The position numbers and the translations under genes were made by a program. Of a DNA stretch of 64,000 nucleotides, positions 38,128 to 56,882 are shown in pieces. The stretch spans positions 26,130-90,129 of the forward strand of contig CAYLPP010000005.1 in the NCBI GenBank assembly GCA_964385615.1. The letters are read 5' to 3'. The notes below the pieces were generated by a model. That model was not told where the DNA came from, made no database searches, and was given only the letters and a program-made list of their open reading frames with translations. The stretch is from an uncultured bacterium (GTDB taxonomy: Bacteria > Omnitrophota > Omnitrophia > Omnitrophales > Aquincolibacteriaceae). Within the stretch, counting starts at the first letter, position 1; every line of letters starts with the position of its first letter.

Positions 38128-38190
38128 AAAGAAGGACTATTTGATTAGGCTTTTCGAGCCGATATACAGAGTTTACAAGGCGGATTTTTC

Positions 38191-43262: not shown

Positions 43263-44244
43263 AAAAAAAATATTTTTTGTCTGCCAGGGAAGAAGAAGTT
43301 TTTTTGAGACGGACATTTCCATTCTTCGGGAGCATTTTCAGACGGACGTTTTTGATCTTTATCCTCCGTCAGCGGCGCATATTCCCGGAATATGGAGAGG
43401 TGTTTCCAGAGCGGACATTGTTTTTATCTGGTTTTTAGGCAGGCACGCGGTTCTTCCGCTAATTATAGCCCGGGTTTTGAATAAGAAAATCGTTCTTGTG
43501 GCCGGAGGCTGGGACGTAGCGGATTGTCCCGAAATTAATTATGGGCTGATGCGCAACGGGCCGTTTCATTTTTTGATTAAATTTCTTTTTACGCTTCCGC
43601 ATAAGGTTCTGGCGGTTTCTCAGTCCAATCTTCGGGAAATTCAAATGAACGCGGAAGTGCCGGCATCTAAAACAGAGCTGATTTATCACGGAATCGAAGA
43701 CGTGCCGGATGCCGGCGAAACGATTCAAAAAGAAAAAAAAGTTATTACGGCCGGTGAAATCACCCGGAGCAATTTACGGCGTAAGGGACTGGAGGCTTTT
43801 GTCAGGTGCGCGGCTCGTTTCACGGATGTTCCGTTTGTCCTGGCCGGAAAAGATTGCGGAGACGGCGCGTTGGAATATCTAAAGAGTATCGCGCCGGCAA
43901 ACGTGGTTTTTACCGGTTTTTTATCGCGGGAGGAACTTGACCGGCAGATGAAAAGCGCTGCCGTTTACGCGCAATTTTCTTTTCACGAAGCTTTCGGGCG
44001 TTCGGTTGCCGAAGCCATGCTTTTTGAATGCGTTCCTGTCGTCACGGACCGCGGGGCTTTGCCGGAAGTGGCCGGAGATGCGGGATATGTTGTTCCTTAT
44101 GGAGATGAAAATGCCTATGCGGACAGGATCTTGAAGGCGTTGAATGACACGCAGAAAGGCCTCGCGCCGCGAAAGCGGGTCCTAAAGCTTTTTTCTTATG
44201 AACAGCGGAATGATGCTCTAAAGAGGCTGGTTGACGGGTTATGA
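43219..44244 (+). CDS. Glycosyltransferase, GT-B fold (GT4-like)
   Basis: EAFGRSVAEAMLFECVPVV motif. Start uncertain: ATG 43219 overlaps the preceding gene by 44 nt, and an in-frame TTG lies at 43252. Confidence 0.6.
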   Translation: MSGAAKGCLKILQNRKKIFFVCQGRRSFFETDISILREHFQTDVFDLYPPSAAHIPGIWRGVSRADIVFIWFLGRHAVLPLIIARVLNKKIVLVAGGWDVADCPEINYGLMRNGPFHFLIKFLFTLPHKVLAVSQSNLREIQMNAEVPASKTELIYHGIEDVPDAGETIQKEKKVITAGEITRSNLRRKGLEAFVRCAARFTDVPFVLAGKDCGDGALEYLKSIAPANVVFTGFLSREELDRQMKSAAVYAQFSFHEAFGRSVAEAMLFECVPVVTDRGALPEVAGDAGYVVPYGDENAYADRILKALNDTQKGLAPRKRVLKLFSYEQRNDALKRLVDGL

Positions 44245-44951
44245 AAAAACAAACCATGGATGAAGTTGAGAGAATCCGCGGGGAATACGCGCGTAGAGAA
44301 AAGGAGTTTCCTCCGGGCTTTTACGCCTCCGCCGGAGATACCCTGCTTTACAGGACAAGGTGCGGAGCCGTTTTGAATTTGCTCAAATCAAACGGAATGA
44401 TCCCTTTGGCCGGAAAAAAAATACTCGAGGTCGGATGCGGCGAGGGCGCGTGGTTTTCGAGTTTTAAAGAATGGGGGGCCGAAGAATCCAGTTTATTCGG
44501 AGTCGATTTTATTCCTGAAAAAATCAGCAGTATCCGGCGGAAGTTTCCGTCCGCGAAGACTGAAATTGGTGAAGCTTCCAGTCTTAGGTGGGCGGATCAC
44601 TCCTTTGATATCGTGCTTCAATCGACGCTTTTTAGCTCTGTCCTCAGTCCGGAACTTAAGCGCAGAATCGCTGATGAAATGATTCGGGTGTTAAAACCGG
44701 GAGGAAAAATCATTTGGTATGATTTTTTTTGTAACAATCCCTGGAATCCAAATGTTAAAGGGGTTGGATTGAGCGAAATCAAAGATCTTTTTCCGGAAAG
44801 CGCGTTGAAATACAGCCGAATTACGCTTGCACCGCCTTTGGCTAGAAAGCTTGCCGGGAGTTTCCCGTCGCTTTGCGTTTTTCTGGAAAAGCTGAGCATT
44901 TTTAACACGCATTATCTGATTTTGATTCAGCCTGGAGCTCAAGTCATCTAA
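44241..44951 (+). CDS. Class I SAM-dependent methyltransferase
   Basis: ILEVGCGEGAWF motif I. ATGA overlap with the preceding gene. Confidence 0.7.
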   Translation: MKKQTMDEVERIRGEYARREKEFPPGFYASAGDTLLYRTRCGAVLNLLKSNGMIPLAGKKILEVGCGEGAWFSSFKEWGAEESSLFGVDFIPEKISSIRRKFPSAKTEIGEASSLRWADHSFDIVLQSTLFSSVLSPELKRRIADEMIRVLKPGGKIIWYDFFCNNPWNPNVKGVGLSEIKDLFPESALKYSRITLAPPLARKLAGSFPSLCVFLEKLSIFNTHYLILIQPGAQVI

Positions 44952-45958
44952 TGACGGATGAACTTCCTTTTGTATCAGTGATCATGCCTGTCCGTAACGA
45001 AGGCGCTTGTATGAAAGACGCTTTGGAAGCTGTGCTGCGGCAAGATTATCCCGCGGACCGGATGGAGGTAATAGCCGCGGATGGTATGTCGACCGATGCA
45101 ACCCGGAAGGTTATTGGAGAATTTCAAAAGAAATATACTAATTTAAAATTAATCGATAATCCCGGGAAGATTGTCAGTACCGGCTTGAACGCGGCGATTT
45201 TGAAATCCGCGGGCAGTATCATCATCCGCATGGACGGCCATACGGTCATGGCTCCTGACTATGTGCGCGCCTGTGTTTCGGCTTTAAAGCGGTCCAATGC
45301 CGATAATGTCGGCGGCAGGATGCGGGCCGAGGGGCGGGGTTTTGTCGGAAAAGCGATCGCATTGGCCACAAGCACTCCCTTCGGTGTCGGCGGAGCCCGG
45401 TTTCATTATTCCGAAAAAGAGGAGTGGGTGGATACGGTCTATCTTGGAGCCTGGAAGCGGGAAATTTTTGAAAAAATCGGACTCTTTGACGAAGAAATGA
45501 TCCGCAATCAGGATGATGAATGGAATTACAGACTGCGCAAGGCTGGCGGCCGGATCTTGATCAATCCCGGGATTCGATCGGTTTATTCGGTGAGGGAAAG
45601 TTTCACAGCGCTCTGGAAGCAGTATTTTAATTACGGCTTTTGGAAAGTCCGTGTTTTTCAAAAACATCCGGCTCAAATGCGCTTACGGCAATTCGTGCCC
45701 TCTTTATTCGTTTCGATTTTGATAGGTTCGGCTCTGATCAGTTTGATTTTAAAGAACCCCGCGTATTTTTTGACGCCGGCAACTATTTATTTGCTCGCGG
45801 ATCTTTGTGCGTCGCTTTGGATTTCAGGAAAATCCGGGACACGCTATTTGGCCGTTCTTCCCGCGGTTTTTTTGATTCTTCACGCAAGTTATGGAGCGGG
45901 GTTTCTTTGGGGAATTCTCAATGCTGCCAAGTTTAAAAAAGTCCGGGTTGAACCCTGA
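44951..45958 (+). CDS. Glycosyltransferase family 2 with C-terminal TM helices (GtrB/ArnC/DPM1-like polyprenyl-phosphate sugar synthase candidate)
   Basis: FVSVIMPVRNEGACM … VIAADGMSTD GT-A core plus two C-terminal TM helices (FVPSLFVSILIGSALISLIL…). Confidence 0.65.
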   Translation: MTDELPFVSVIMPVRNEGACMKDALEAVLRQDYPADRMEVIAADGMSTDATRKVIGEFQKKYTNLKLIDNPGKIVSTGLNAAILKSAGSIIIRMDGHTVMAPDYVRACVSALKRSNADNVGGRMRAEGRGFVGKAIALATSTPFGVGGARFHYSEKEEWVDTVYLGAWKREIFEKIGLFDEEMIRNQDDEWNYRLRKAGGRILINPGIRSVYSVRESFTALWKQYFNYGFWKVRVFQKHPAQMRLRQFVPSLFVSILIGSALISLILKNPAYFLTPATIYLLADLCASLWISGKSGTRYLAVLPAVFLILHASYGAGFLWGILNAAKFKKVRVEP

Positions 45959-45962
45959 AGAT

Positions 45963-47681
45963 ATGAATAAACTTTTTTCTGAAAATACGCGGACCGTAAA
46001 ATGGGGATTCTGGCTCATTTTAATGGCCGCGTTTTTTGTTAGGACTTGGGGGATTCATTACGGCCTTCCTTACGCTTACCACCCGGATGAACCTCTGAAC
46101 GTAAATGTCGTTTTGTCGATGGGATACCGCCACGATTTCAATCCTCATTGGTTCATTCATCCCGCATTGATGTTTTATTTCTTAGGGGTTCTCTACGGGG
46201 TTTATTTCGCGGCGGGGCTGGCCGCGGGATTTTGGAAGAACTCTCACGATTTTGGGCTGCTGATTCTTCAGGACCCTTCAAATATTTATTTAATAGGCCG
46301 AATAGCCTCCGCTCTTTTAAGCACCATAACCGTTGCCGCGGTTTACGAGGCGGGCCGGAAGCTGTTCGATAATAAAACAGGCTTAACGGCGGCCGTGATA
46401 CTTTCGTTTCTTTACCTGCCGGTTTACTTTGGGCACTTTATCAAAACAGAGTCGCTCCAAACCTTACTTACGCTTATTTCATTTCTGTTTTCGATCCGGA
46501 TTTTTGAACAAGGTAAAACGCGCGACTATTTGATTAGCGGTTTATTCGCAGGTTTGGCGGCGGCGGCTAAACAGCCGTCTCTTCTGGTGGTTCTTGCCGG
46601 TATTGCCGGGCATTTCTTCCATCAGAAAAAGACTCGCGGTTCCGAATGGGGAAAACTTCTGCTTCTTCTGACGGCGGCAGGCGCGGGTTTTTTTGCCGGC
46701 TCTCCATTCAGCGTTATTAAGTTCAGCGAAATGCTCCAAGCTTATCAGGGGATCAAATTTTACACGGTGGGAAGAGCGGGGGATTCTCTCCAGACCTGGT
46801 TTCATGATTTAATGACGGACATAGGCCCCGGCCCGCTTTTAGTTTTTTTTCTCTCATCGGTATATTTGATCATTAAGCCTTCGAAGAAAAAAAGCATGGC
46901 CGCGGTTTTCCCGTGGGCACACTTTATTCTGTTTTCTCTTCCAGCTTGGAAGAATGTACATTGGCAAGTCGTCACGATGCCTTTTTTTGCTTTATTGGCC
47001 GCTGATTTTTTGCAGGAGACAGCTTCGGCGGCCCGCCGTTTTTGGGGATGGAACCGCGGTTTAACGATGGCGCTGCTGGTTGGGGTGATGATGGCCGGCC
47101 CGTTGTTTCGGTGTCTTGCCTATGACGCTCAATTGAACCGGGTTGACACGAGAACTCAGGCTAAAGAGTGGATTGAACGGAATATTCCAGCCGGTTCAAA
47201 AATCGCGATGGAGCGCGGGCGGTTTATGAGCCGGAATGCACCGCCCATTAGAGAAAGCGCTGAAAGCATTCAGAGAAATTATATGTCTCCGCAAAGCCCT
47301 CTTTTGAAAAACGGATATCAAATGCAGGGTGTTGAAACTTATTACCGTATGCTGATTGAAGCGCAGGAGGGCAAGGGAGATGCCGCTTATGACATCATCC
47401 CTTTGTTTTATGAACCTTTTGGAGGGCGGGCTTCTTTTTGGCAAAGGCCGGCGATTCAATCTCTGGAGGAATATGAAGCCCAAAAAGTGGAGTATGTGAT
47501 TATTTCCGGCATGGCGGAGGAAAAGAGTTCGGCGGCCGGATCTTCCGAGGGGATGTGGGATCATTTTTACAAAAGTCTTCAAAATACAAATCGCGCGGTG
47601 TTGATTAAGGAATTTGTTCCGGGGAATCATCCTGGGCCGGCGATTCACATTTACCGGTTAAAAAAAGAGGAAAATACGTGA
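45963..47681 (+). CDS. GT-C fold membrane glycosyltransferase (GT39/GT83 ArnT/PMT-like)
   Basis: About 11 TM helices. First periplasmic loop YAYHPDEPLNV is a DE-type motif. C-terminal soluble domain. The track ORF begins at 45891; ATG 45963 avoids overlap with the preceding gene. Confidence 0.6.
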   Translation: MNKLFSENTRTVKWGFWLILMAAFFVRTWGIHYGLPYAYHPDEPLNVNVVLSMGYRHDFNPHWFIHPALMFYFLGVLYGVYFAAGLAAGFWKNSHDFGLLILQDPSNIYLIGRIASALLSTITVAAVYEAGRKLFDNKTGLTAAVILSFLYLPVYFGHFIKTESLQTLLTLISFLFSIRIFEQGKTRDYLISGLFAGLAAAAKQPSLLVVLAGIAGHFFHQKKTRGSEWGKLLLLLTAAGAGFFAGSPFSVIKFSEMLQAYQGIKFYTVGRAGDSLQTWFHDLMTDIGPGPLLVFFLSSVYLIIKPSKKKSMAAVFPWAHFILFSLPAWKNVHWQVVTMPFFALLAADFLQETASAARRFWGWNRGLTMALLVGVMMAGPLFRCLAYDAQLNRVDTRTQAKEWIERNIPAGSKIAMERGRFMSRNAPPIRESAESIQRNYMSPQSPLLKNGYQMQGVETYYRMLIEAQEGKGDAAYDIIPLFYEPFGGRASFWQRPAIQSLEEYEAQKVEYVIISGMAEEKSSAAGSSEGMWDHFYKSLQNTNRAVLIKEFVPGNHPGPAIHIYRLKKEENT

Positions 47682-47685
47682 GCTC

Positions 47686-48402
47686 ATGAAGTTATCTATT
47701 ATTATTCCCACCTACAATGAGTATGCCACGATTGAACAGCTGATCGAGTATGTGCAGTCAGTGCGGTATCCCGTCGAGCATGAAATTATTATTGTAGATG
47801 ACGCCTCCATTGACCGTACCTATGAGAAAGAAAAAATGCTGCGCATAAAAAGCAGAAAAGAAAAAAATAATATCAGGCTCTTTAAGAACAGAATTAACCG
47901 GGGTAAAGGGTACTCGATTAGAAAAGGGATTCGCCGGGCCTCGGGCGATATCATTATTGTTCAGGATGCTGACCATGAATATGACCCTCACGACATTCCG
48001 AAGCTTTTAGAACCCCTTTTGAAAAATGAAGCGCAGGTTGTTTACGGCAGCAGATTTCTGAACCGGCCTAAGCCGGAGAGAATGGCTTTCCCGAACTGGA
48101 TTGCCAACCGGTTTCTGACTTGGCTGACCAATCTCTTGTATGGTTTGAAGCTCACGGACATGGAGACCTGTTATAAAGCTTTTAAGGCGGACATTATTAA
48201 AGGTTTAAAGCTGAAGGCAAACCGTTTTACTTTTGAACCTGAAGTCACGGCGTTAATCGCGAAGAAAAGGATTAAAATCATTGAATTGCCAATCAGTTAC
48301 AGGGGAAGAACGGCTGAAGAAGGGAAGAAAATCAAAGCGAGAGACTTTTTTTTCGCGGTTCTTATTTTGATCCGTTACTGTTTTCCGGGAGGACGCGATT
48401 AG
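47686..48402 (+). CDS. Glycosyltransferase family 2, dolichyl/undecaprenyl-phosphate sugar synthase-like (DPM1/ArnC/GtrB class)
   Basis: LSIIIPTYNEYATIEQLI … IIIVDDAS … VQDADHEY, with a Lys/Arg-rich insertion. Confidence 0.65.
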   Translation: MKLSIIIPTYNEYATIEQLIEYVQSVRYPVEHEIIIVDDASIDRTYEKEKMLRIKSRKEKNNIRLFKNRINRGKGYSIRKGIRRASGDIIIVQDADHEYDPHDIPKLLEPLLKNEAQVVYGSRFLNRPKPERMAFPNWIANRFLTWLTNLLYGLKLTDMETCYKAFKADIIKGLKLKANRFTFEPEVTALIAKKRIKIIELPISYRGRTAEEGKKIKARDFFFAVLILIRYCFPGGRD

Positions 48403-48493
48403 AACCTTTTTAAAAATAACGTCAGCGGTCTTTATTTTTTATTCAGTTCTAGCGCTTTTTCTAGGTAAATTTCTGGAGATACCGACGGATACG

Positions 48494-49591
48494 GTGAATT
48501 ATTACTCGCCCCTGGCGGTGAATCTGCTTCACGGAAATGGATATTCTGTTTCCGGGCAGTTTGTAACGGTTTATCCGCCGGGTTTCCCTCTTTTTTTAGC
48601 GTTGATTTATAAAATAACCGGTTACGCGGGAACGGAGAATGCGGTTTATCCTTGGGCCGCGGCACTGCTTCAGGCTTTTTCCTGCGGATTTATTTATTTG
48701 TGCGCGCGGCTTTATCTTTTGGAACGGACCGCGGTTACGGCCGCTTTGCTTTTGGCTTGTTATCCCTTTTTTATGCTGTTAGGAGTAACCGAGTATGTTT
48801 GGACCGCTATGCCGCTGTTTCTTTCTCTGTTTTTTTCCGCCTCTTTTTTTTATTTAAAAACGAGATTAAAGAAAACCGGATTCCTTTTGATCTTTTCAGG
48901 CTTGTTGTTTGGGGCTGCCAGCCTGGTATGGCCTGGCGGGTCTTATCTCTGGGCTGTCATGGCAATACTCGGTTTGAGCTTTCAGTTTCAGCCTCTTAAA
49001 AAAACGCTGTGGATTGCGGTTTTCACTGGCGCCTTCTGGGTTTTACCAGCCTTCTGGCATGGGTATGTTATGAAGGCAACCGGCAAAAGCGTCTGGTTTT
49101 CTGAGAACTTGGTTGGTTCCATGAAGGACGGGTTAATCCGCCATGAGGGATCCAAATTGAGAAATTTTGAAACGGCCAAGGATGGGGAACGGCTTAACCA
49201 AGCGGGTTATTTTAAAACCTCCGGAGATTTTATAAGATTTTATTTTGAAGAATTACAGACTAAACCTAACGAAACAATACGGTTTATTCTGTTTAAGCTT
49301 TTCCGGCCCTGGTACGCCACGGATTCTGAAAAGCATGAACCGTGGATTTTTTTAATTCAGATTCCCTATTTATTTTTAGGTTTTTGGGGCGCGGTGTACG
49401 CCATCCGGCAGAGGCCCTTTTTGACGGTTTTTTCTGGGATGGTTATAGTTTATTTCTGGCTCGTTTCTTTTTCGGTTTTGTCGATACTTCGATACATGAT
49501 GCCCGCGATGGGATTTGTCATGATTTGGACCGCGGTTTCTATTGAGGCGATAGCCGGCAGCATAAGGGGGATCAAAAATGAAAAAATTTGA
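48494..49591 (+). CDS. Polytopic membrane protein, GT-C-like (PMT_2/ArnT-like) candidate; N-terminus probably incomplete as annotated
   Basis: YPPGFPLFLALIY and further TM helices. The GTG start at 48494 is preceded by 91 nt of in-frame open sequence that encodes a TM helix but has no canonical start. Confidence 0.45.
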   Translation: MNYYSPLAVNLLHGNGYSVSGQFVTVYPPGFPLFLALIYKITGYAGTENAVYPWAAALLQAFSCGFIYLCARLYLLERTAVTAALLLACYPFFMLLGVTEYVWTAMPLFLSLFFSASFFYLKTRLKKTGFLLIFSGLLFGAASLVWPGGSYLWAVMAILGLSFQFQPLKKTLWIAVFTGAFWVLPAFWHGYVMKATGKSVWFSENLVGSMKDGLIRHEGSKLRNFETAKDGERLNQAGYFKTSGDFIRFYFEELQTKPNETIRFILFKLFRPWYATDSEKHEPWIFLIQIPYLFLGFWGAVYAIRQRPFLTVFSGMVIVYFWLVSFSVLSILRYMMPAMGFVMIWTAVSIEAIAGSIRGIKNEKI

Positions 49592-50768
49592 TATTTGCGT
49601 GATCGGCGGATGCGGGCATGTCGGCCTGCCGCTAGCTCTTTGTTTCGCCCAGGAAGGAAAGCGTGTCGCTATTGTTGACGTAAACGAATCAGCGGTTCGA
49701 AAAATCCGGAGCGGAAAAATGCCGTTTAAGGATGAGGGGGGTGATGAAATTCTGCCCCGTGTTCTCCGGTCTAAAAAGTTAACTGTCGATACTGATCCCC
49801 GGCTGATTTCTGAAAGTGAAAATATTATTTTTGTGCTGGGCACTCCCGTTTCAACCCATCTTTATCCCTCTTACACGCAGTTTTACGAAACGCTTCAGCG
49901 GTACATGAAATATTTTAAAAAAGAACAGCTTATCGTTTTCCGGAGCACGCTGTTCCCGGGAAGCATGAAGACAATCCGGCAAATGTTCGCGGACGCCGGG
50001 CTTCGCGTTTCTCTGGCGTTCTGCCCTGAACGCGTGGCCGAAGGCCTTGCCATCCGTGAAATTTACGAACTCCCGCAAATCGTTTCCGCGTTTGACGCGA
50101 AAAGCCGCCGCCGCGCGAAGGCGCTCTTCTCCGTTTTTACCAAGGAACTGGTAGAGCTTGAACCTTTGGAAGCAGAGCTTGGAAAACTGTTTACTAATGT
50201 GTGGCGTTACATGAAATTCGCGATCGCCAATCAGTTTTACATGATCGCTAATGACAGCCGTCTGGACTTTTATAAGATTTACAACGCGATCGTCGGCGGG
50301 TATCCGCGGCTCAAGGATATGCCCCGCGCCGGATTTGCCGCCGGGCCCTGCCTGTTTAAAGACACCATGCAGCTGGCTTCTTTTACGGACAACAGGCTGT
50401 TTTTGGGGCACGCGGCCATGCTGATTAATGAAGGCTTGCCTAGCTATTTGATTACTCAGCTCAGAAAGCGGTTCTCTCTCGAGAAAAAGCGGGTGGGCAT
50501 TTTGGGGATGGCATTTAAAGCGGAATCAGACGACAGCCGGGAATCGCTGTCGTTCAAGCTTTTGAATATTCTCCAAAAGGACTGCCGGGCTGTTTACGTC
50601 ACGGACCCCTTCGTGAAAGATCCTAGAATTCTCCCGGTTCAAGAAGTCGTTAAGAAGAGCGACATTCTGATTATTGGCGCACCGCACCGCGAGTATAAAA
50701 AACTGAATCTTTCGAAAAAAACGGTAATTGACGTTTGGAACCTTTACGGCAAGGGAGGGCTGGTCTGA
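49578..50768 (+). CDS. Nucleotide-sugar dehydrogenase (UDP-glucose/GDP-mannose dehydrogenase family)
   Basis: N-terminal ICVIGGCGHVGLPLA Rossmann motif with the family's three-domain length (~396 aa). Confidence 0.75.
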   Translation: MKKFDICVIGGCGHVGLPLALCFAQEGKRVAIVDVNESAVRKIRSGKMPFKDEGGDEILPRVLRSKKLTVDTDPRLISESENIIFVLGTPVSTHLYPSYTQFYETLQRYMKYFKKEQLIVFRSTLFPGSMKTIRQMFADAGLRVSLAFCPERVAEGLAIREIYELPQIVSAFDAKSRRRAKALFSVFTKELVELEPLEAELGKLFTNVWRYMKFAIANQFYMIANDSRLDFYKIYNAIVGGYPRLKDMPRAGFAAGPCLFKDTMQLASFTDNRLFLGHAAMLINEGLPSYLITQLRKRFSLEKKRVGILGMAFKAESDDSRESLSFKLLNILQKDCRAVYVTDPFVKDPRILPVQEVVKKSDILIIGAPHREYKKLNLSKKTVIDVWNLYGKGGLV

Positions 50769-51793
50769 TGAAAGTTCTGGTGACCGGCGCGGCCGGATTC
50801 GTGATGGGCTATCTGACCGAAGAATTGCTTCGAGCCGGGCATGAGGTTGTCGGCGTGGATAATTTCTCAAAGTACGGGAGGGTCGCCCGAAGTTACGATC
50901 AGCATCCTAAATATCAATTTGTTCAGGGAGACTGTAAAGATGTTGAGCTGATGAAGCGTTTGGCTGAGGGGTGTGATCAGGTTGTCGCCGGAGCCGCGAT
51001 GATTGGGGGGATTTCCTATTTTCACCGCTTCGCGTATGACTTGCTGGCGGAAAACGAAAGGATTCTCGCGGCCACTTTTGACGGCGCCATCTCTGCTTTT
51101 AAAGCGGGAAAGCTTTCGAGGATTATCGTGATCTCTTCTTCAATGGTGTTTGAAAATACGCCTCACTTCCCGTCGCGCGAAGGCGATCAGCTTAAATCGC
51201 CTCCGCCTTCTTCAACTTATGGGTTTCAAAAACTCGCGAGCGAGTTTTTTGCCAAAGGGGCATGGGAGCAGTATCAGCTTCCTTACACGATTTTAAGACC
51301 GTTCAATTGTGTCGGCATCGGAGAGAAAAAAGCCGTTCAGGAAGGCGGACGGATTGAAAAAGGGAATCTGGACCTCGCGCTCAGCCATGTGGTTCCGGAT
51401 TTGATCGTGAAAGTTCTCAAAGGGCAGGACCCTCTGGAGATCTTGGGTGATGGAACCCAGGTGCGCCATTACACCTACGGAGGCGATCTTGCCCGCGGGA
51501 TCCGCCTTGCCATGGAAAGCTCAAAAGCGGTGAATGAAGATTTTAATCTTTCCACGCCGGTTTCCACCACCGTTCTTCAGCTCGCGGAAATGATTTGGAA
51601 AAAAATCAACAGCCCTGGAAAACCTTTCCGGTATGTCAGCGCGGAAAAATTCGCTTACGATGTGCAGAAAAGAGTTCCTGACACTGAAAAAGCAAAAAAA
51701 ATTCTAGGTTTCAGCACTCAGACATCGCTTGATGAAATGCTCGACATTGTCATCGCGTGGATTAAAGACCAGCTCAAGCAGGGTACTTTCTGA
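50768..51793 (+). CDS. NAD-dependent epimerase/dehydratase (extended SDR; UDP-glucuronate epimerase/decarboxylase-type candidate)
   Basis: MKVLVTGAAGFVMGYL … YGFQK (YxxxK). TGATG overlap with the dehydrogenase. The track ORF from 50735 runs through the dehydrogenase 3' end. Confidence 0.7.
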   Translation: MKVLVTGAAGFVMGYLTEELLRAGHEVVGVDNFSKYGRVARSYDQHPKYQFVQGDCKDVELMKRLAEGCDQVVAGAAMIGGISYFHRFAYDLLAENERILAATFDGAISAFKAGKLSRIIVISSSMVFENTPHFPSREGDQLKSPPPSSTYGFQKLASEFFAKGAWEQYQLPYTILRPFNCVGIGEKKAVQEGGRIEKGNLDLALSHVVPDLIVKVLKGQDPLEILGDGTQVRHYTYGGDLARGIRLAMESSKAVNEDFNLSTPVSTTVLQLAEMIWKKINSPGKPFRYVSAEKFAYDVQKRVPDTEKAKKILGFSTQTSLDEMLDIVIAWIKDQLKQGTF

Positions 51794-51816
51794 ACAGCTT
51801 CCCAAAAATATCCATC

Positions 51817-52506
51817 GTGATTCCCGTCTACAATGAAGGCGGAAATATTCCGGCTTTGTTTACGGAGCTGAAAAAAAGTATCGGAAGCGGAAGCGAAATC
51901 CTGATTTGCTATGATTTTGAAGAAGACAACACGCTTCCTGAAGCCCGGAAATACCAGGCGGATTTCCCGAAGCTCAGATTTGTTAAGAATCAATTTGGAT
52001 CAGGATGTCTGGGCGCCATTAAATCCGGGTTTAAAGAAGCTTCCGGACCGGCAGTGCTTGTCATGATGGCTGATCTCTCCGACGATTTGAGTTCCGTAAG
52101 CCCCATGATGAATCTGTTTGAAGAGGGATGCGCGGTTGTGGCCGCTTCCCGCTATACGGCCGGAGGGCGTCAAATCGGAGGACCTCCCGTTAAAAAATTC
52201 CTTTCGAAAATTGCCGGGCTCTCGCTTCATTACTTTACCGGCTTGCCTTCGGTAGACCCCACGAATAATTTCAAACTCTACGCCAAATCTTTTTTGGAAA
52301 AGACGCGGATAGAAAGTGACGGCGGTTTTGAGCTGGGCCTGGAATTGACCGTGAAAGCTTATTTAAGCGGATCGAAAGTCGGAGAATGCCCGACCGTTTG
52401 GCGTGACCGGACGGCTGGAGTATCGAGGTTTCAATTCAAGAAATGGCTTCCGAAATATCTTCGATGGTACTTGTACGCAGTGAAGGGGCGCTTTTTCAAA
52501 AAATAA
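51817..52506 (+). CDS. Glycosyltransferase family 2, polyprenyl-phosphate sugar synthase-like
   Basis: (KIS)IVIPVYNEGGNIPALF … ICYDFEEDNT. The frame is open upstream of GTG 51817, so the true start is probably a few codons earlier (non-ATG). Confidence 0.6.
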   Translation: MIPVYNEGGNIPALFTELKKSIGSGSEILICYDFEEDNTLPEARKYQADFPKLRFVKNQFGSGCLGAIKSGFKEASGPAVLVMMADLSDDLSSVSPMMNLFEEGCAVVAASRYTAGGRQIGGPPVKKFLSKIAGLSLHYFTGLPSVDPTNNFKLYAKSFLEKTRIESDGGFELGLELTVKAYLSGSKVGECPTVWRDRTAGVSRFQFKKWLPKYLRWYLYAVKGRFFKK

Positions 52507-52507
52507 A

Positions 52508-54448
52508 ATGCAATCTACAGTGCTAAAAAATGAAATGCCCACGCTTTTTCGCTGGAGCTGGTTGGCGGTTTTTGGAATAGCCGTCGGCGCCGCGGTTTTT
52601 TTCCGTGCTTTTCCTTCCTTGAGCGGCGATGAATATAACTCTCTGATCGGGGCGGGAGATCTCAGGCTGAATCTGCACGCGGTCGGTTATTTTTCGCAGC
52701 TGAAAATTTGGAGCTGGATCAGCGGGTCTGATTTATGGCTTCGCGGGTTATCTTTAATTTGGGCTGCCGCGGGGCTTTGGGCTTTTATGAAACTGGGAGA
52801 AAAAACGGAACTTCCGCGTCCGGTGATTCTTAACAGCGGTTTATTGCTGGCGGTAAACGCTTTTTTTCTCCAGTACGCTTTTCAGGTACGGTTTTACGCG
52901 TTATTCGCGGCCGCGAGCACCCTCTGGTTCGCTCTGCTGGCCGGAATCGTTGTCCGCCGTGAAAAGGTTAATTGGGTTTTGCTTTTATTTTCGGCGCTTC
53001 TTCTGGTGTCTTCTCATTTATTTGGGTGGATGGTCATCGCTATGGGAGGTATTCTGGTTTTTTGGTTCCGCTGCACCAGAACGACAAAGATAATCTTACT
53101 CGCGTCTATTTTTATTCTTCTCGCGTTATTTTACACCAAACCAGTTCAGGATATTTTGACCCGCCTGGTTTATAAAACGACACTTCCGCTTGAACAAATT
53201 CCGGCTGCGGGTCCCAGAGGGTTGACCACGGCTATGATTTTTAAATTCCCTCTGACTTTTTTCTTTTTCGCTTTAGGCGAAAGAGTTTACCCTCTTTCCT
53301 GGATTTCGGCGGCTGGGGTTCCTATTATAGGTACGGCGTTCATTTTGGGCTGTATCCGTCTGAGACATTTTCCTTTTCTGAGTTCAATCGCGGTTCTTTG
53401 CCTGGCGAGTATCGCTGCGTTATTTCTGATTTTTGATCCGCTGGCGCCGCCTTCACTTCAGGGTGCCGCGGCCCGTTACGTCATTTACGCGCTTCCTTTT
53501 TTCGTGATGATTTGCGCGCTGGGCGCGCATGAGCGCCCGGTTCTTTGTTTTTTGGTGTGGGGTATTACGCTTTTTGCTTTTGCTTCATTCACAAAACCTT
53601 TCTGGAGTTCCAGTCAGATCGATTTAATGGATTGGGAAAAACAGTTTAGGTCCGATATTGTTGACCCTGCGAAAACATGCGTGGTTTCGGATGGAAGAGC
53701 CCAAGGAGCCGTGACCCGTTATCTTCCCGCCGGCGTACGTCTTGCGGATAATCCCGAAGCTTGCCTGGGCTTTGACCGCGTTTTAATCGCTTCGGCGAAT
53801 TTTGATTTAAAAGCCATCCGGTATCTGGATTCTCAAAACGCGAAACTTGCCTCGGATTACCAACTTGTTCGAAACACCAACGCTTTTCCCAATCAATTAA
53901 CAGTTTATGAGAAAAAAGCTTCAAAAAATTTAACCTTAGATTTTGCACCGGACCGGCTGGGTCTTCCGGAACAAGACCTTCGTTTTCCTCTTGTGATTCG
54001 AAACGGCCGGTTACTGAATGGTTTTGTCCGGCTGGATGAATTCCGATCCGCGTACGAATTTCAGTCCGTTCCAAAGGGAAAATTCCGTCTTTTAATCAAT
54101 TATCGGGAACTGGGCCTCGTGACTCCGGGCGAGCCGGTCGCGGCTGTCCGGTGGCACAGCCTCGACGGAACTTTTACTGAAACCCCTCTGCGCGCCGGTA
54201 TTGAAACGGCTGCCTGGGACGGCCATTGCGGCAGCTGCGCTGAAGAAGCAGGCTGGACAAAACGGCTGCATTTACTTGGAGCCCAAAGTTACCCCGGAGC
54301 CTACCGCCAGTACCGGGCTGGAATTTGGTCTGTGGAAATGGTTTCGCCGTCTTCCGCGGTTAAAGCAGAGCTAGTGAAACTCCATCCAAATGCCGTTATT
54401 TACTTTTGGGGAAATGAACCTTCAAGCCCGGAAAAAACCAATGCTTAA
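52508..54448 (+). CDS. GT-C-like polytopic membrane protein with a C-terminal soluble domain (putative periplasmic-acting glycosyltransferase)
   Basis: About 11 TM helices in the first 380 aa. The first loop has SLSGDEYNSLIGAGDL (DE motif). C-terminal domain of about 260 aa. Confidence 0.45.
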   Translation: MQSTVLKNEMPTLFRWSWLAVFGIAVGAAVFFRAFPSLSGDEYNSLIGAGDLRLNLHAVGYFSQLKIWSWISGSDLWLRGLSLIWAAAGLWAFMKLGEKTELPRPVILNSGLLLAVNAFFLQYAFQVRFYALFAAASTLWFALLAGIVVRREKVNWVLLLFSALLLVSSHLFGWMVIAMGGILVFWFRCTRTTKIILLASIFILLALFYTKPVQDILTRLVYKTTLPLEQIPAAGPRGLTTAMIFKFPLTFFFFALGERVYPLSWISAAGVPIIGTAFILGCIRLRHFPFLSSIAVLCLASIAALFLIFDPLAPPSLQGAAARYVIYALPFFVMICALGAHERPVLCFLVWGITLFAFASFTKPFWSSSQIDLMDWEKQFRSDIVDPAKTCVVSDGRAQGAVTRYLPAGVRLADNPEACLGFDRVLIASANFDLKAIRYLDSQNAKLASDYQLVRNTNAFPNQLTVYEKKASKNLTLDFAPDRLGLPEQDLRFPLVIRNGRLLNGFVRLDEFRSAYEFQSVPKGKFRLLINYRELGLVTPGEPVAAVRWHSLDGTFTETPLRAGIETAAWDGHCGSCAEEAGWTKRLHLLGAQSYPGAYRQYRAGIWSVEMVSPSSAVKAELVKLHPNAVIYFWGNEPSSPEKTNA

Positions 54449-56882
54449 AAGACCTCTGGATATTTTATTGAGTTTGTTTTTAATTGTTCTTGTCGCGCCT
54501 CTTTTTCTGCTGATTTCCATCCTGATCCGTCTGGATTCCCCGGGGCCGGTTATTTTTAAACAGAAAAGAACCGGTTTGAACGGAACGGAATTTACCCTGT
54601 TTAAATTCCGCACAATGATTGAAGACGCTCCAAGCATGGGGCCGGTGATTACCGCTAAAAATGATCCGCGCGTGACCCAAATCGGCCGTGTTCTCCGCTG
54701 GACCAAACTGGATGAACTGCCTCAGCTGCTCAATGTGCTCAAAGGCGATATGAGCATGGTCGGCCCCAGGCCTGAAGTTCCCCAAATGACGGCGCTTTAT
54801 AAAGGCGAACAGACGAAAGTATTTTCCGTCCGGCCCGGCATTATGGGATCAAGTCAAATTAACAACCGTGATGAAGAGCAGATGCTGATAGAAGGGGATC
54901 AGGTTGAGGATTTTTACGTGCAGAAAATTCTGCCGGATAAAATTAAAAACGATCTGACCTATATTCATAATCCCGACCCTTTCAAGGATCTTAAGATTCT
55001 TTTTGGCGGAGGAGTCACGCTTTTATTCAGCTCGCTTAAACTTCCTTATATCTTCGAGAGTAAACGCCGGGTTCTTTTCCTCCTTTTCGACCTGCTGATT
55101 TCCGGCCTGTCTTTCTGGTTCGGTTTTCTTCTGCGTTTTGAAGGCCGGGTTCCGCACGCCGATGCCGTCATTTTTCAAACCCTTCTTCCCCTGATGCTGA
55201 TTGTGCGCGCTCCGTGTTTTATTTCATTCGGGCTTTATCAAACGCTTTGGCAGTATCTGGGCATTCAGGAATTGCTTTCGATTATCCGGGCCGTTATCGT
55301 CGGGTCTTTTATTTTTCCGGTTATTCCGTTTTTGTTCCAGATGGATTTCCCGCCGCGGTCGGTTTTAATCACCGACGGACTGCTTTTGATTACCTGTCTG
55401 GGCGGTTCGCGCGTTATTTTCAAGTTAACCGCTGAAAGATTGAGGCGCCCGATTCTAGGCTCCAAGAAAAACGCTTTGATTATTGGAGCGGAAGACACCG
55501 GGGAATTTCTGGTGCGTGAATTTATTAAAAACCCGGCGGCCGGTTACCGGCCTGTCGCGTTTCTGGACAATGATGCCGGTAAACTGGGAGTCCGGATTCA
55601 CGGCGTGAAAGTCATGGGAAAAATTTCCCAGCTCAGCCAGGTGGTGCGGGTCCGTAAAGTTGACGAAGTGATTATCGCGCTTTCCCAGGCTTCGGCGAAT
55701 GAAATCCGGGAAATTGTTAAGACCTGCGGAGAGCTGAAACTTCCTTCTCGAATCGTACCGCCGGCTTCGGCGCTTCTCTCACCGCAGATTTTGCCCTTGA
55801 GGCTCCGGCCGGTTGATGTTTCGGATCTTTTGGGCCGTGAATTGGTGCAGGCGGATCTTCCCGGAATTCAGAATCTCCTGAGGGGGAAGAAAGTCCTGGT
55901 CACAGGCGCGGGCGGTTCTATCGGCTCTGAGTTGAGCAAAATTATTTTTCAAAATCATCCCGAAGAGTTGATCTTGGTCGACAACTCCGAAAGCAGTTTG
56001 TATGACATTGAAATGGAGCTCAAGGCGAAACCGCTGGGCACGAATATCGTGACTTATCTGGCCAGCGTGGCTGACGGCGAAACGTTGGAAAAAATTTTCA
56101 AACGCCATAAACCGCAGATTGTTTATCACGCCGCGGCTTACAAGCATGTGCCCCTTATGGAAATTCATTTTGCGCAGGCGGTGAAGAACAATATTTGGGG
56201 GACGAAGATTGTCGCGGATCTGGCCAAGAAAAACGGGGCTGAAAGCTTTGTGCTGATTTCAACGGATAAAGCGATTAATCCGACAAGCATTATGGGCGCC
56301 ACCAAAAGAGTCTGCGAGATTTACGCCCAAAGTTTAAAGGGCGGAAAAACCCGCTTTCTCGCGGTGCGGTTCGGCAACGTTTTCAACAGCAAAGGCAGTG
56401 TGGTTCCTCTGTTTAGAAAGCAGATTGAAATGGGCGGGCCGGTCACGGTGACGGACCCCGAAGTCACGCGTTATTTCATGGATGTTTCCGAGGCTGTTTT
56501 TTTAATTCTGCAAGCCACGATTTTAGGATCCGATTCTGAAATTTTTGTTCTGGAAATGGGTCAACCGGTCAAAATTGCCGATCTCGCGCGGGATTTGATC
56601 CGTTTAATGGGGGTGCCTTCAGACCGGATGCCTGTCAGATTTACGGGTTTAAGGCCGGGTGAAAAACTTCATGAAGAACTGCAGTTGGGAAGTGAAACGG
56701 CCAGCGCGACCTCGCATCCCAAAATTAAAATCTGGAAACCCGGAAAAAATCAGGGTATTGATATTCATTCGGGAATCGAACATTTGCTCAAGCTTGTGGA
56801 GCAAGGCGCTTCCCGCGACGCGGTTATTCAGGAGTTCAAAAAGATAGTGCCTGAATACGCGCCTTGGAACCCTCAGATTTAA
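54441..56882 (+). CDS. Fusion protein: PglC-like monotopic phosphoglycosyltransferase (Bac_transf) + PglF/WbpM/CapD-like UDP-HexNAc 4,6-dehydratase
   Basis: N-terminal LDILLSLFLIVLVAPLFLLI re-entrant helix, DELPQL, and GDMSMVGPRPE PGT motifs. Then four TM helices and a CapD-type SDR domain (VLVTGAGGSIGSEL … YHAAAYKHV … STDKAINP). Start ATG 54441 (MLKRPLD). Confidence 0.8.
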   Translation: MLKRPLDILLSLFLIVLVAPLFLLISILIRLDSPGPVIFKQKRTGLNGTEFTLFKFRTMIEDAPSMGPVITAKNDPRVTQIGRVLRWTKLDELPQLLNVLKGDMSMVGPRPEVPQMTALYKGEQTKVFSVRPGIMGSSQINNRDEEQMLIEGDQVEDFYVQKILPDKIKNDLTYIHNPDPFKDLKILFGGGVTLLFSSLKLPYIFESKRRVLFLLFDLLISGLSFWFGFLLRFEGRVPHADAVIFQTLLPLMLIVRAPCFISFGLYQTLWQYLGIQELLSIIRAVIVGSFIFPVIPFLFQMDFPPRSVLITDGLLLITCLGGSRVIFKLTAERLRRPILGSKKNALIIGAEDTGEFLVREFIKNPAAGYRPVAFLDNDAGKLGVRIHGVKVMGKISQLSQVVRVRKVDEVIIALSQASANEIREIVKTCGELKLPSRIVPPASALLSPQILPLRLRPVDVSDLLGRELVQADLPGIQNLLRGKKVLVTGAGGSIGSELSKIIFQNHPEELILVDNSESSLYDIEMELKAKPLGTNIVTYLASVADGETLEKIFKRHKPQIVYHAAAYKHVPLMEIHFAQAVKNNIWGTKIVADLAKKNGAESFVLISTDKAINPTSIMGATKRVCEIYAQSLKGGKTRFLAVRFGNVFNSKGSVVPLFRKQIEMGGPVTVTDPEVTRYFMDVSEAVFLILQATILGSDSEIFVLEMGQPVKIADLARDLIRLMGVPSDRMPVRFTGLRPGEKLHEELQLGSETASATSHPKIKIWKPGKNQGIDIHSGIEHLLKLVEQGASRDAVIQEFKKIVPEYAPWNPQI

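Follow-up and report, generated by a model that had tools for sequence, protein, structure and literature searches.

Organisation of the fusion gene

The window (the whole stretch of 64,000 nucleotides that was analysed, from an uncultured bacterium of the Omnitrophales) contains one long gene that appears to join a phosphoglycosyl transferase (PGT) to a nucleotide-sugar dehydratase, and farther upstream it holds genes for a sugar aminotransferase, a hexapeptide acyltransferase and a Wzy_C-domain protein. The question raised by this locus is whether the fusion is real and, if so, which sugar it prepares and for which glycan. The features under study are as follows.

54441..56882 (+), bifunctional PGT-dehydratase gene, 813 aa plus stop (Pfam architecture)
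54441..55010 (+), monotopic PGT catalytic core, aa 1-190 (Bac_transf; PglC and WbgY alignments)
55062..55442 (+), four transmembrane helices, aa ~208-334 (hydropathy and AF2 model)
55458..55850 (+), CoA_binding_3-type nucleotide-binding domain (Pfam PF13727; second stretch of TIGR03025)
55881..56879 (+), PglF/WbpM/WbgZ-type UDP-GlcNAc 4,6-dehydratase SDR domain (Polysacc_synt_2, 5BJU, Foldseek)
38191..39624 (+), Wzy_C-domain membrane protein of the ligase, polymerase or O-OTase superfamily (Wzy_C, 2.5e-8)
39617..40777 (+), DegT-family sugar aminotransferase, WbgX-like, co-inherited partner of the fusion (Pfam DegT_DnrJ_EryC1, 1.3e-129)
40777..41325 (+), hexapeptide (LbH) acyltransferase (best matches WcaF family, maltose/galactoside O-acetyltransferases and DapD)

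The maximal open reading frame of the fusion gene spans 54390..56882 (+), and the ATG at 54441, which overlaps the stop of the upstream gene by 8 nt, gives an 813-aa protein (MLKRPLD...) that is a 100% match to a database protein (P0001). Pfam mapping placed Bac_transf at aa 3-189 (E 1.7e-57), CoA_binding_3 (PF13727) at aa 263-440 (E 4.7e-19) and Polysacc_synt_2 at aa 485-765 (E 9.5e-107). The PGT core begins with a hydrophobic hairpin (aa ~5-30 by hydropathy) that carries the conserved P20, and its D91-E92 dyad (in KLDELPQL) and P109-R110-P111 align with C. concisus PglC (8G1N, E 8.6e-31). The dehydratase half matched C. jejuni PglF (5BJU) at E 3.3e-80 and, using Foldseek, with a TM-score of 0.94-0.95, an rmsd of 2.0 Å and 42% identity; its SDR domain contains TGAGGSIG, T608-D609-K610 and M618...K622. 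In an alignment of 50 fused homologues the DE dyad, the PRP motif and the dehydratase catalytic residues were invariant or at least 90% conserved.

Hydropathy revealed four hydrophobic segments between the two enzymes (210-233, 242-266, 276-300 and 308-327), which agree with helices H208-232, H239-262, H275-299 and H306-334 of the AF2 model. The linker and transmembrane region were modelled confidently (mean pLDDT of the whole model 86.3), while a pTM of 0.57 leaves the arrangement between domains uncertain. The original prediction of a single-ORF fusion with a DE dyad in DELPQL, a PRP motif, four transmembrane helices and a PglF-type dehydratase was thus borne out, and 54441..56882 is predicted to encode a genuine bifunctional inner-membrane enzyme, with the PGT core N-terminal to a complete PglF/WbpM/WbgZ-type dehydratase made up of the four transmembrane helices, the nucleotide-binding 'DUF' and the SDR domain.

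Fused and split forms in relatives

Whether the fusion is conserved or split in relatives was then answered by comparison. The single-polypeptide architecture was found in about 110 of the 120 best homologue clusters (35-82% identity, many assemblies) and is widespread in environmental bacteria. A frameshift or misassembly that joined two separate genes is conceivable given that adjacent split genes are known in many genomes, but it is extremely unlikely: a single ORF of 811-819 aa, 57-82% identical, is present in dozens of assemblies that are independent of one another, GcvT and MutY genes are kept as flanks of the fusion gene, and the linker is among the confidently modelled parts. Conservation across so many independent assemblies excludes both assembly error and chance.

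The split form, in which a small PGT gene is followed directly by a PglF-like dehydratase gene, occurs in many phyla and includes the cultured Propionivibrio limicola. One further locus (L007) has a contiguous DegT-PGT-PglF operon, and the PglF-like, PGT and DegT genes are also contiguous in F. vincentii. The fusion is the joined form of this widespread adjacent pair, which is usually accompanied by a single DegT aminotransferase. The same dehydratase scaffold was also found fused to a polytopic PGT (P0040), and coupling of a PGT to a dehydratase therefore arose twice.

The aminotransferase and the hexapeptide enzyme

Pfam confirmed the DegT-family gene, which lies 14 kb upstream of the fusion gene in the window and 7 kb away in the closest relative (L001). 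In seven other loci (L002, L004, L005, L085, L086, L087 and L088) the gene immediately before the fusion is an orthologue of this DegT (41-49% identity), and in four of them it overlaps the fusion start. A functional link between the distant DegT and the fusion enzyme is for this reason supported. The window DegT was expected to be PglE-like, but turned out to be WbgX/ArnB-like: it shares 48% identity and the PLP-lysine motif SFYATK with S. sonnei WbgX, scored 265 bits against ArnB versus 122 bits against PglE, and had ArnB enzymes as best PDB matches.

The hexapeptide gene, too, was confirmed by Pfam at its stated coordinates, but its protein likewise did not fit the proposed role of a PglD-like N-acetyltransferase. 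It scored 58 bits against the NeuD/PglD model (cut-off 160.8) and only 22.7 bits against the acetyltransferase domain of Neisseria PglB, and C. jejuni PglD was absent among the PDB matches listed. Its homologues at 52-53% identity are found within glycosyltransferase blocks, their 5-kb flanks contain no DegT, and the enzyme therefore travels with glycosyltransferases and not with the aminotransferase. No acetyltransferase was found near the fusion gene in L002, L004 and L085-L088, and a Ralstonia homologue of the hexapeptide protein is distinct from the PerB/PglD-type enzyme. Judged from its sequence, the hexapeptide protein belongs with the LbH enzymes of MAT/WcaF type; O-acetylation of a glycan is its more likely role, and its place in the priming-sugar pathway is doubtful. 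4-N-acetylation to diNAcBac by this enzyme is possible because its start overlaps the DegT stop codon in the window and in L001, though the comparative data do not favour it.

Substrate of the PGT domain

The published diNAcBac fingerprint was sought in the PGT domain and was not there: the GxLLP loop is missing, M stands in place of Y118, and the C-terminal aromatic-box region could not be aligned. Together with the WbgX/ArnB-like DegT and the MAT/WcaF-type hexapeptide protein, this leaves without support the earlier view that the locus encodes exactly the four Campylobacter activities PglF, PglE, PglD and PglC. Identity to PGTs of FucNAc4N-type contexts was only 40-44%, and homology does not fix the substrate because this is below the level where published networks separate isofunctional clusters. 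The gene wbgX has been described as a UDP-D-FucNAc4N synthetase gene (PMC6124807), and small PGTs that use FucNAc4N have been shown experimentally (PMC11626204). A 4-amino-4,6-dideoxy-HexNAc is the probable priming sugar.

The Wzy_C protein and export genes

The Wzy_C-domain gene was also confirmed by Pfam, and its orthologues in relatives (57% identity in L001, 41% in L002) occupy the same block. The Wzy_C family includes both WaaL and PglL, and Schulz et al. took a location inside a glycan locus as an indicator of WaaL (PMC3643930). The gene in the window lies inside such a locus, with two Wzm/Wzt ABC transporters and many glycosyltransferases; the genes scanned, at 10-57 kb of the window, included no Wzx, Wzc or Wza. 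The AF2 model (pLDDT 83.8) had WaaL (7TPG) as its sole significant fold match, and PglL_A (PF15864) gave no match at E<=10. The protein is most simply read as a WaaL-type ligase, with the final acceptor suggested by gene content. The proposal that it is a PglL-type O-oligosaccharyltransferase is improbable and has no specific support, and a general protein O-glycosylation system likewise finds none in the locus.

Some loci with a Chloroflexi-annotated acetyltransferase also hold weak homologues of the Wzy_C protein (25-28%). Chloroflexi generally lack lipid A.

Proposed pathway and alternatives

The best explanation of the whole, which I consider probable, is that the fused PGT-dehydratase and the WbgX-like DegT supply a sugar with which the PGT primes an exported glycan. 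The SDR domain, given its fold and conserved catalytic residues, would convert UDP-GlcNAc to UDP-4-keto-6-deoxy-GlcNAc at the cytoplasmic membrane face, and orthology and gene neighbourhood suggest that DegT would aminate C4 to yield UDP-2-acetamido-4-amino-2,4,6-trideoxyhexose, for which similarity to WbgX favours the galacto (FucNAc4N) configuration. The PGT domain would then move the sugar-1-phosphate to undecaprenyl phosphate, and the primed glycan may be extended by the many glycosyltransferases of the locus. From gene content, one of the two Wzm/Wzt transporters would probably export it, and the Wzy_C protein would then pass it on. Coupling of the first and last steps of priming-sugar synthesis, as originally suggested, is one option for what the fusion achieves.

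Alternatively, the two domains may catalyse consecutive steps, with the PGT taking UDP-4-keto-6-deoxy-GlcNAc (UDP-KdgNAc) from the fused dehydratase to form Und-PP-KdgNAc, and amination by DegT and any acylation following on the lipid-linked sugar. Successive reactions are the easiest explanation of a two-domain fusion, many split operons have the PGT and dehydratase genes side by side, the same dehydratase scaffold also occurs fused to a polytopic PGT, and UDP-KdgNAc is the substrate of small PGTs that form a large cluster (WreU, Cps9F, WbfU), the Und-PP-sugar being tailored afterwards (PMC11626204). This order of events is nevertheless unlikely: the literature surveyed yielded no aminotransferase that works on a lipid-linked keto sugar, and DegT belongs to the typical soluble aminotransferases of nucleotide sugars, nearest to WbgX and ArnB. 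The original scheme, in which the fusion, DegT and the hexapeptide protein would make Und-PP-diNAcBac for a PglL-type general O-glycosylation system, appears more improbable still. The PglF-type dehydratase, the conserved DegT partner, the DegT-acetyltransferase overlap, the shared Wzy_C family of WaaL and PglL, and the weak Wzy_C homologues in loci with a Chloroflexi-annotated acetyltransferase are compatible with it; the PGT without the fingerprint, a DegT far from PglE, an acetyltransferase below the NeuD/PglD cut-off and separated from DegT or fusion genes in several other loci, and the WaaL-like signs of the Wzy_C protein all stand against it.

A reduction route, modelled on S. aureus CapD/CapN/CapM and P. 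aeruginosa WbpM/WbpV/WbpL, seems very unlikely. Here, another SDR of the locus would reduce the keto sugar to QuiNAc or FucNAc, and DegT would serve another sugar, for example an Ara4N-like pentose made via the nearby NDP-sugar dehydrogenase. Two more SDR genes (14883..15974 and 50735..51793), a dehydrogenase gene at 49578..50768 and the ArnB enzymes heading the PDB matches of DegT suit this route. However, the SDRs fit no specific reductase family, the seven loci in which a DegT orthologue adjoins the fusion gene have no dehydrogenase/SDR cassette, and L001 keeps DegT and the fusion but not the cassette at 49.6-54.4 kb.

Comparison with known systems

The closest counterpart of the favoured pathway, PGT priming with an aminated sugar, is WbgX-WbgY-WbgZ of Shigella sonnei and Plesiomonas shigelloides O17 (form I O-antigen with FucNAc4N), where the same three activities are encoded in the same order by three separate genes; on the S. 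sonnei plasmid these are a DegT, a 196-aa PGT and a 639-aa PglF-like protein. The window DegT, PGT and dehydratase share 48%, 40% and 38% identity with WbgX, WbgY and WbgZ over essentially their full length, and WbgY is collinear with the window PGT, including a C-terminal PGT insertion. In contrast, the window has PGT and dehydratase in one polypeptide and DegT moved 14 kb upstream, and it carries Wzm/Wzt transporters where S. sonnei uses Wzx/Wzy. The substrate of WbgY itself is not known to have been determined biochemically.

C. jejuni PglF is closely related to the dehydratase half in structure and sequence, with the 4TM-DUF N-terminus and the T-D-K/Met catalytic set in common, and PglF/PglE/PglD/PglC follow an analogous chemistry from keto sugar to amino sugar to PGT transfer. 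The four Campylobacter activities are separate proteins, whereas the window joins two and has neither a PglE-like aminotransferase, nor a PglD/NeuD-type acetyltransferase, nor a PGT with the diNAcBac fingerprint.

The fusion is a real bifunctional PGT of an already known class. In bifunctional monotopic PGTs (Bi-PGTs) such as Neisseria PglB (acetyltransferase-PGT), a monoPGT core is likewise joined to a catalytic domain of the same pathway, and sugar-modifying and receiver-domain fusions are reported from network analysis (PMC11626204; PMC10942596; PMC12802240). The fusion partner here differs in being an entire dehydratase that is anchored in the membrane and brings four transmembrane helices of its own, an architecture found neither explicitly described nor assayed in the literature surveyed. 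Large monotopic PGTs (WbaP, WcaJ, CpsE) share the 4TM bundle, the CoA_binding_3 'DUF' and the PGT core with the fusion, and this 'DUF' is common to PglF-like dehydratases and large PGTs (PMC10942596). The order is permuted, from 4TM-DUF-PGT in the large PGTs to PGT-4TM-DUF in the fusion, where the SDR dehydratase then follows the DUF. Two separate stretches of the fusion together pass TIGR03025, the large-PGT model, with 230.6 bits from the PGT domain alone and 314.6 bits once the second matched stretch is added.

By description only, the system can also be likened to Rhizobium etli WreV/WreU/WreQ, in which a small PGT draws its substrate from a PglF-like dehydratase, a precedent for a direct dehydratase product as PGT substrate (PMC11626204). 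The tailoring enzyme of R. etli is a reductase that acts on the lipid-linked sugar after the PGT step, whereas the conserved partner in the window is an aminotransferase.

A fusion of a small phosphoglycosyl transferase and a PglF-like dehydratase

The fusion gene lies in an uninterrupted ORF (54390..56882, +) that encodes, from an ATG at 54441, an 813-aa protein starting MLKRPLD and 100% identical to the database protein P0001; this ATG and the stop codon of the upstream gene overlap by 8 nt. Pfam searches found three domains:

aa 3-189, Bac_transf (PF02397), the phosphoglycosyl transferase (PGT) domain; E 1.7e-57, 194.3 bits (cut-off 27)
aa 263-440, CoA_binding_3, the 'DUF' domain; E 4.7e-19
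aa 485-765, Polysacc_synt_2, the dehydratase (SDR) domain; E 9.5e-107, 357 bits

By hydropathy, a single hydrophobic hairpin region lies at the N-terminus and four more hydrophobic segments lie within aa 210-327, and an AlphaFold2 model with 50 homologues as input (mean pLDDT 86.3; pTM 0.57) placed helices at 208-232, 239-262, 275-299, and 306-334. Alignment of 50 fused proteins revealed residues that were invariant or at least 90% conserved in both the PGT domain (K3, R4, P20, D91, E92, P109-R110-P111, and E112) and the dehydratase (G489..G492-S-I-G495, T608-D609-K610, M618, and K622). The D91-E92 dyad, whose absence would have spoken against a PGT, and P109-R110-P111 aligned with C. concisus PglC, while the N-terminal helix with its conserved K3-R4 and P20 was one unbroken helix (aa 3-32) by DSSP of the predicted model. 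The anatomy given in the original prediction, a PGT followed by four TM helices and a dehydratase, was thus borne out by Pfam, hydropathy, the AlphaFold2 model, and the motif alignment, and the protein may in effect be described as a small PGT ahead of a complete PglF. The whole protein also passed the large-PGT model TIGR03025 in two separate stretches (314.6 bits, cut-off 295.55), with 230.6 bits for the PGT domain on its own. No PglC-, PglF-, PglE- or PglD-specific NCBIfam equivalog matched the proteins analysed here, the specific models all scoring below cut-off.

The best PDB sequence match of the dehydratase half was C. jejuni PglF (5BJU, E 3.3e-80), and the catalytic stretch reads STDKA...IMGATKR in the window and STDKA...IMGCTKR in PglF. 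The modelled dehydratase superimposed on solved PglF with a target-normalised TM-score of 0.94-0.95 and an rmsd of 2.0-2.1 A at 42-43% identity, and the PglF sites represented by variants in the PDB (T395, D396/K397, and M405) correspond with identical spacing to T608, D609/K610, and M618. The SDR signature is present, namely TGxxGxxG, the Thr-Asp-Lys set, and a Met replacing the SDR Tyr (M618...K622). Also present is the PglF-type N-terminal module of a four-helix TM bundle and a CoA_binding_3 domain, which full-length PglF is described as having in common with large PGTs, WbaP among them (PMC10942596). Domain, catalytic residues, and fold all agree with the assignment to PglF/WbpM-type UDP-GlcNAc 4,6-dehydratases, the activity itself being predicted.

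A single ~790-975-aa protein united Bac_transf and Polysacc_synt_2 in about 110 of the 120 best-matching homologue clusters, whose identity was 35-82%. These clusters represented many independent assemblies, Omnitrophica, KSB1, and Nitrospirales being among the names, and many of the homologues carry the JGI annotation of a COG1086-type epimerase/dehydratase plus sugar transferase. GcvT-like and MutY genes downstream of the fusion gene were common to the closest relatives. By 62% identity and a common gene order, the source organism is related to an Omnitrophica MAG. Conservation in many assemblies with common flanking genes excludes a frameshift or chimera for practical purposes, and an artefact joining two genes was considered extremely unlikely.

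Adjacent split genes also occur. In a separate scan of one genome per GTDB species, which returned 80 loci (the fused loci L001-L004 were fetched apart from it, and the fused metagenomic clusters came from the homologue-cluster search), many loci matched residues 1-808, and ORF analysis showed that most were two adjacent genes. The usual split layout was a small PGT gene directly 5' of a ~610-660-aa PglF-like gene, as in the cultured Propionivibrio limicola, where the PGT ORF runs to 10561 and is followed from 10630 by the dehydratase ORF, and in L007 DegT, PGT, and PglF-like genes were contiguous. Single-ORF fusions were limited to L005 (Myxococcales) and L006 (Flavobacteriales) among the 80 scanned loci. 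P0040, a 1013-aa protein from a JGI metagenome, has a WecA/WbpL-type polytopic PGT (Glycos_transf_4) fused N-terminally to CoA_binding_3 and Polysacc_synt_2; in this convergent fusion a member of the second PGT superfamily has been joined to the dehydratase. Its occurrence beside the monotopic fusions indicates that PGT-dehydratase coupling arose in both unrelated PGT superfamilies.

Bifunctional monoPGTs are a recognised class, and network analysis has revealed fusions to sugar-modifying and receiver domains (PMC11626204, PMC10942596, PMC12802240). This class and the split operon of S. sonnei are already known; no explicit description or assay of a PGT-PglF fusion was found in the literature searched, a coverage that lay outside the primary PGT-fusion network survey.

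An aminotransferase partner of the WbgX type

The neighbourhoods of eight fused homologues (L001-L004 and L085-L088) were compared. Six of these loci (L002, L004, L085, L086, L087, and L088) had a DegT aminotransferase gene directly 5' of the fusion gene, with an overlap of the fusion start in L004, L086, L087, and L088, and in L005 the two genes were 220 nt apart. The fusion-adjoining DegTs of these seven loci were 41-49% identical to the window DegT (39617..40777), while the unrelated DegTs of L003 reached only 32-34%. In the closest relative, L001, whose fusion protein is 82% identical, a 12-kb block runs Wzy_C, DegT, hexapeptide, GT2, GT4, GT4, GT2, MT, GT2, PMT_2, fusion, and in the window this block is enlarged by a further PMT_2 gene, of 596 aa (45891..47681), and by a cassette of four genes (49578..54448). 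The orthology of the window DegT to those adjoining the fusion gene elsewhere supports a functional link despite the distance of 14 kb, so that the proposed tie between the two enzymes stands. The PDB matches of the DegT were led by ArnB (265 bits) and perosamine synthase (231), followed by PseC (167), with C. jejuni PglE (1o61, 4ztc) far down the ranking at 119-122 bits. An Ara4N-like role was considered on account of the ArnB-like score and the nearby NDP-sugar dehydrogenase, SDR, GT2, and GT-C genes; it was rejected because the DegT accompanies the fusion gene in loci without that cassette.

The nearest known counterpart of the module was found on the S. sonnei invasion plasmid, which was matched by the PGT domain in a translated search of annotated plasmids. 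The O-antigen cluster there encodes, in this order, a DegT aminotransferase, a 196-aa sugar transferase, and a 639-aa NDP-sugar epimerase/dehydratase, namely wbgX-wbgY-wbgZ (gene names as in PMC9723277 and PMC6124807). The three window components compare with them as follows:

DegT against WbgX: 48% identity, essentially full length, with the PLP-Lys motif kept
PGT domain against WbgY: 40% identity, essentially full length, with collinearity extending over the C-terminal 'ILPxK' region, which is absent from PglC
TM-DUF-SDR against WbgZ: 38% identity, essentially full length

The S. sonnei genes are therefore a split form of the DegT and PGT-dehydratase module in the window, and the DegT, which had been called PglE-like, is better described as WbgX-like. 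The C4 amine is equatorial in bacillosamine and axial in FucNAc4N. D-FucNAc4N is present in the O17/sonnei O-antigen, and wbgX is described as a UDP-D-FucNAc4N synthetase gene (PMC6124807). Similar arrangements were found in Fusobacterium vincentii, where PglF-like, PGT (44% identity), and DegT (36%) genes are contiguous, and in Parabacteroides distasonis, where a DegT-PGT pair (PGT 43%) ends a capsule locus; use of UDP-FucNAc4N has been shown experimentally for PGTs of F. nucleatum and B. fragilis (WcfS) (PMC11626204).

The substrate of the PGT domain

PGTs specific for UDP-diNAcBac form a cluster (PglC, WeeH, EpsL, and Neisseria PglB) with published signatures comprising a GLLLP loop, an aromatic box (Y118, Y122, W150, F154, and F197 in C. 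concisus PglC numbering), and an extended C-terminus, and these are degenerate in PGTs of other substrates (Anderson et al., PMC10186338). When aligned to PglC, the window PGT has GPVITAKNDP in place of the GLLLP mobile loop; two residues are inserted there, and the KNDPR is WbaP-like. Of the aromatic box, Y122 is retained and a Met stands at the Y118 position; the alignment ends at aa 145, so that the region of W150, F154, and F197 is not alignable, and the window PGT domain continues into TM helices where PglC has its C-terminus. The best profile match of the PGT domain was, over its full length, the catalytic domain of generic EPS/WcaJ-type PGTs. Because the diNAcBac signature is a sufficient and not a necessary criterion, its absence only makes diNAcBac a less likely substrate, and a diNAcBac-type PGT, as originally proposed, was not supported by loop or aromatic box.

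The hexapeptide acetyltransferase of the glycan-assembly block

The best profile for the 182-aa hexapeptide (LbH) protein (40777..41325), which had been read as PglD-like, was the WcaF family at 78.7 bits, under the cut-off of 192. Against the NeuD/PglB/VioB model TIGR03570 it scored 58.2 bits (cut-off 160.8), and this match was confined to the LbH part (model positions 87-202), leaving out the N-terminal nucleotide-sugar-binding domain. Its PDB matches were DapD, maltose and galactoside O-acetyltransferases, QdtC, and VioB; the acetyltransferase domain of Neisseria PglB (4m98) reached 22.7 bits, and C. jejuni PglD was absent among the best 60 of 65 matches.

An orthologue adjoining the DegT gene was found in L001 only, and in L002, L004, and L085-L088 no hexapeptide gene was present within 8-10 kb of the fusion gene. 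Homologues with 52-53% identity instead occur within GT blocks of L093-L095, where the acetyltransferase cluster is annotated as Chloroflexi and the order is GT4, GT4, PMT_2, acetyltransferase, Wzy_C-like, GT2, GT4. Each gene of these blocks has a homologue in the window at 36976..49591 (25-53% identity), and no DegT or PGT-dehydratase was found in the 5-kb flanks of the L093-L095 acetyltransferases. This gene context assigns the acetyltransferase to a glycan-assembly block and makes participation in the amino-sugar pathway less likely, and it implies that the block conserved between L093-L095 and the window would predate the tie to the DegT/PGT-dehydratase module. A further homologue, 'maa' of Ralstonia EPS I (33%), is distinct from the PerB/PglD-type enzyme located there between PGT and DegT. 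The overlap of the DegT stop with the acetyltransferase start was first counted as evidence for pairing and then discounted, because many neighbouring operon genes overlap and acetyltransferase homologues occur without a nearby DegT. Three of the four Campylobacter-type activities that had been predicted (dehydratase, DegT aminotransferase, and PGT) are consequently supported as a module, while the fourth, the acetyltransferase, is not.

The Wzy_C protein and its glycan locus

All genes from 10.2 to 56.9 kb lie on one strand and include about 25 glycosyltransferases, three methyltransferases, and PMT_2 GT-C proteins; no Wzx, Wzc, or Wza was detected among the genes scanned in the locus. The following features were identified:

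10178..10726 (+), UpxY-family NusG-like antiterminator heading the ~47-kb same-strand glycan run; 153.9 bits, cut-off 100
10813..14149 and 29287..32243 (+), two Wzm/Wzt ABC-transporter sets, both Wzt with a Wzt_C domain
32240..34183 (+), fusion of a GT4 and a Polysacc_deac_1 (PgaB/IcaB-like) deacetylase, 647 aa
45891..49591 (+), two PMT_2 (GT-C) proteins (596 and 365 aa) around a small GT2
49578..54448 (+), four-gene cassette of NDP-sugar dehydrogenase, SDR, small GT2, and a 646-aa polytopic membrane protein

UpxY-type regulators are best known from Bacteroides capsule loci. The three methyltransferases could supply a chain-terminating cap recognised by the Wzt_C domains. The small GT2 between the PMT_2 genes is AglJ/ArnC/PpgS-like, i.e. 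like polyprenyl-phosphate sugar synthases, and together with the 365-aa PMT_2 it is conserved in L001; the PMT_2-GT2-PMT_2 set suggests periplasmic glycosylation using a lipid-phosphate sugar donor. The four-gene cassette is absent from L001, and its gene content recalls Arn-like modification via a polyprenyl-phosphate sugar with no specific match, the 646-aa protein having none in Pfam or NCBIfam.

The Wzy_C protein (38191..39624) is embedded among GT and Wzm/Wzt genes, and its L002 orthologue lies in the same block as a GT9 heptosyltransferase-family gene. It matched only the generic Wzy_C model (34.3 bits, cut-off 31.7), while PglL_A (PF15864) gave no match at E<=10 in this protein or two orthologues. 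PglL_A is a discriminator of PglL, and a position inside LPS loci points to WaaL over PglL (Schulz et al., PMC3643930). Only 19 relatives of the protein were detectable, and weak homologues occur in L093-L095, the loci with the Chloroflexi-annotated acetyltransferase. A sequence search of the PDB gave no match at E<=10, and the structural model (pLDDT 83.8, pTM 0.87) had one significant fold match, the WaaL ligase 7TPG (E 5.4e-6, TM 0.51/0.58); no O-OTase structure was among the fold matches, so that fold cannot separate ligase from O-OTase. R224, R279, R322, and H366 were invariant in the 19 homologues and are candidate counterparts of the conserved periplasmic Arg/Arg/His of E. coli WaaL (R215, R288, and H338), residues common to WaaL and PglL (PMC3643930). 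Most simply, the protein would be a ligase that acts once an ABC transporter has exported the glycan, with a polymerase or an O-OTase as possible alternatives; the PglL-type O-oligosaccharyltransferase of the original prediction found no specific backing, given the missing PglL_A, the position inside a glycan locus, and WaaL as the only fold match.

A proposed model for priming with a 4-amino sugar

Taken from homology and context at every catalytic step, the pathway probably runs from the SDR domain through the WbgX-like DegT to the PGT. The SDR domain would make UDP-4-keto-6-deoxy-GlcNAc, the DegT would aminate it at C4, and the PGT domain would move 2-acetamido-4-amino-2,4,6-trideoxyhexose-1-phosphate onto Und-P, after which the glycan would be extended, exported, and ligated. 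An exact diNAcBac module with a PglL shares with this pathway the three supported activities, and it is improbable in view of the PGT signature, the acetyltransferase context, and the Wzy_C protein; a reduction route was considered very unlikely.

In the main rival model, which is rather unlikely, the keto sugar itself would be the PGT substrate and tailoring would follow once the sugar is lipid-linked; the fusion would then couple consecutive steps. WreU, Cps9F, and WbfU provide precedent for direct keto-sugar use (PMC11626204). A bolder and rather doubtful version holds that the PglF-type 4TM-DUF might be a dedicated docking and regulatory platform for the priming PGT, from which the keto sugar would be handed straight to the PGT, leaving the DegT to aminate the Und-PP-sugar. 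This idea stems from large PGTs carrying the 4TM-DUF in cis, and from its being preceded by a monotopic PGT here and a polytopic one in P0040; amination on the Und-PP carrier was not found described in the literature searched. If true, it would account for the homology of large-PGT N-termini to PglF-like dehydratases, which has been called 'puzzling' (PMC10942596).

As a naturally occurring 'Rosetta stone', the fused protein is evidence of physical cooperation between the first membrane-committed enzyme in glycan assembly and the membrane-anchored dehydratase with which rare-sugar synthesis begins. A single polypeptide lets one ask whether the keto sugar is channelled to the PGT, what the 4TM-DUF common to PglF-like dehydratases and large PGTs does, and at which point of the pathway amination happens. 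For annotation, the conserved unit is DegT, PGT, and PglF-like protein, of the WbgXYZ type and without an acetyltransferase, and it should not be taken automatically for a Campylobacter-style bacillosamine or protein-glycosylation system.

Variants of the module and of its neighbours

Several fusion proteins carried an extra C-terminal response-regulator receiver domain (P0116 from the Nitrospirales locus L004, P0051, P0091, and P0098), P0116 being present on many contigs, and these variants suggest that glycan priming may be under phosphorylation control. Near the DegT-fusion pair, CapK-like AMP-ligase, ATP-grasp-like or asparagine-synthase-like genes, differing by locus, were found instead of an acetyltransferase, and are possible alternative modifiers of the 4-amino group:

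L085, 3510..4922
L086, 2571..3983
L087, 10980..12041
L088, 10474..12486

In the window itself, the second Wzm/Wzt set has its permease joined to a GT2 glycosyltransferase at the N-terminus (581 aa), and a GT2-ABC2_membrane fusion of this kind is unusual.
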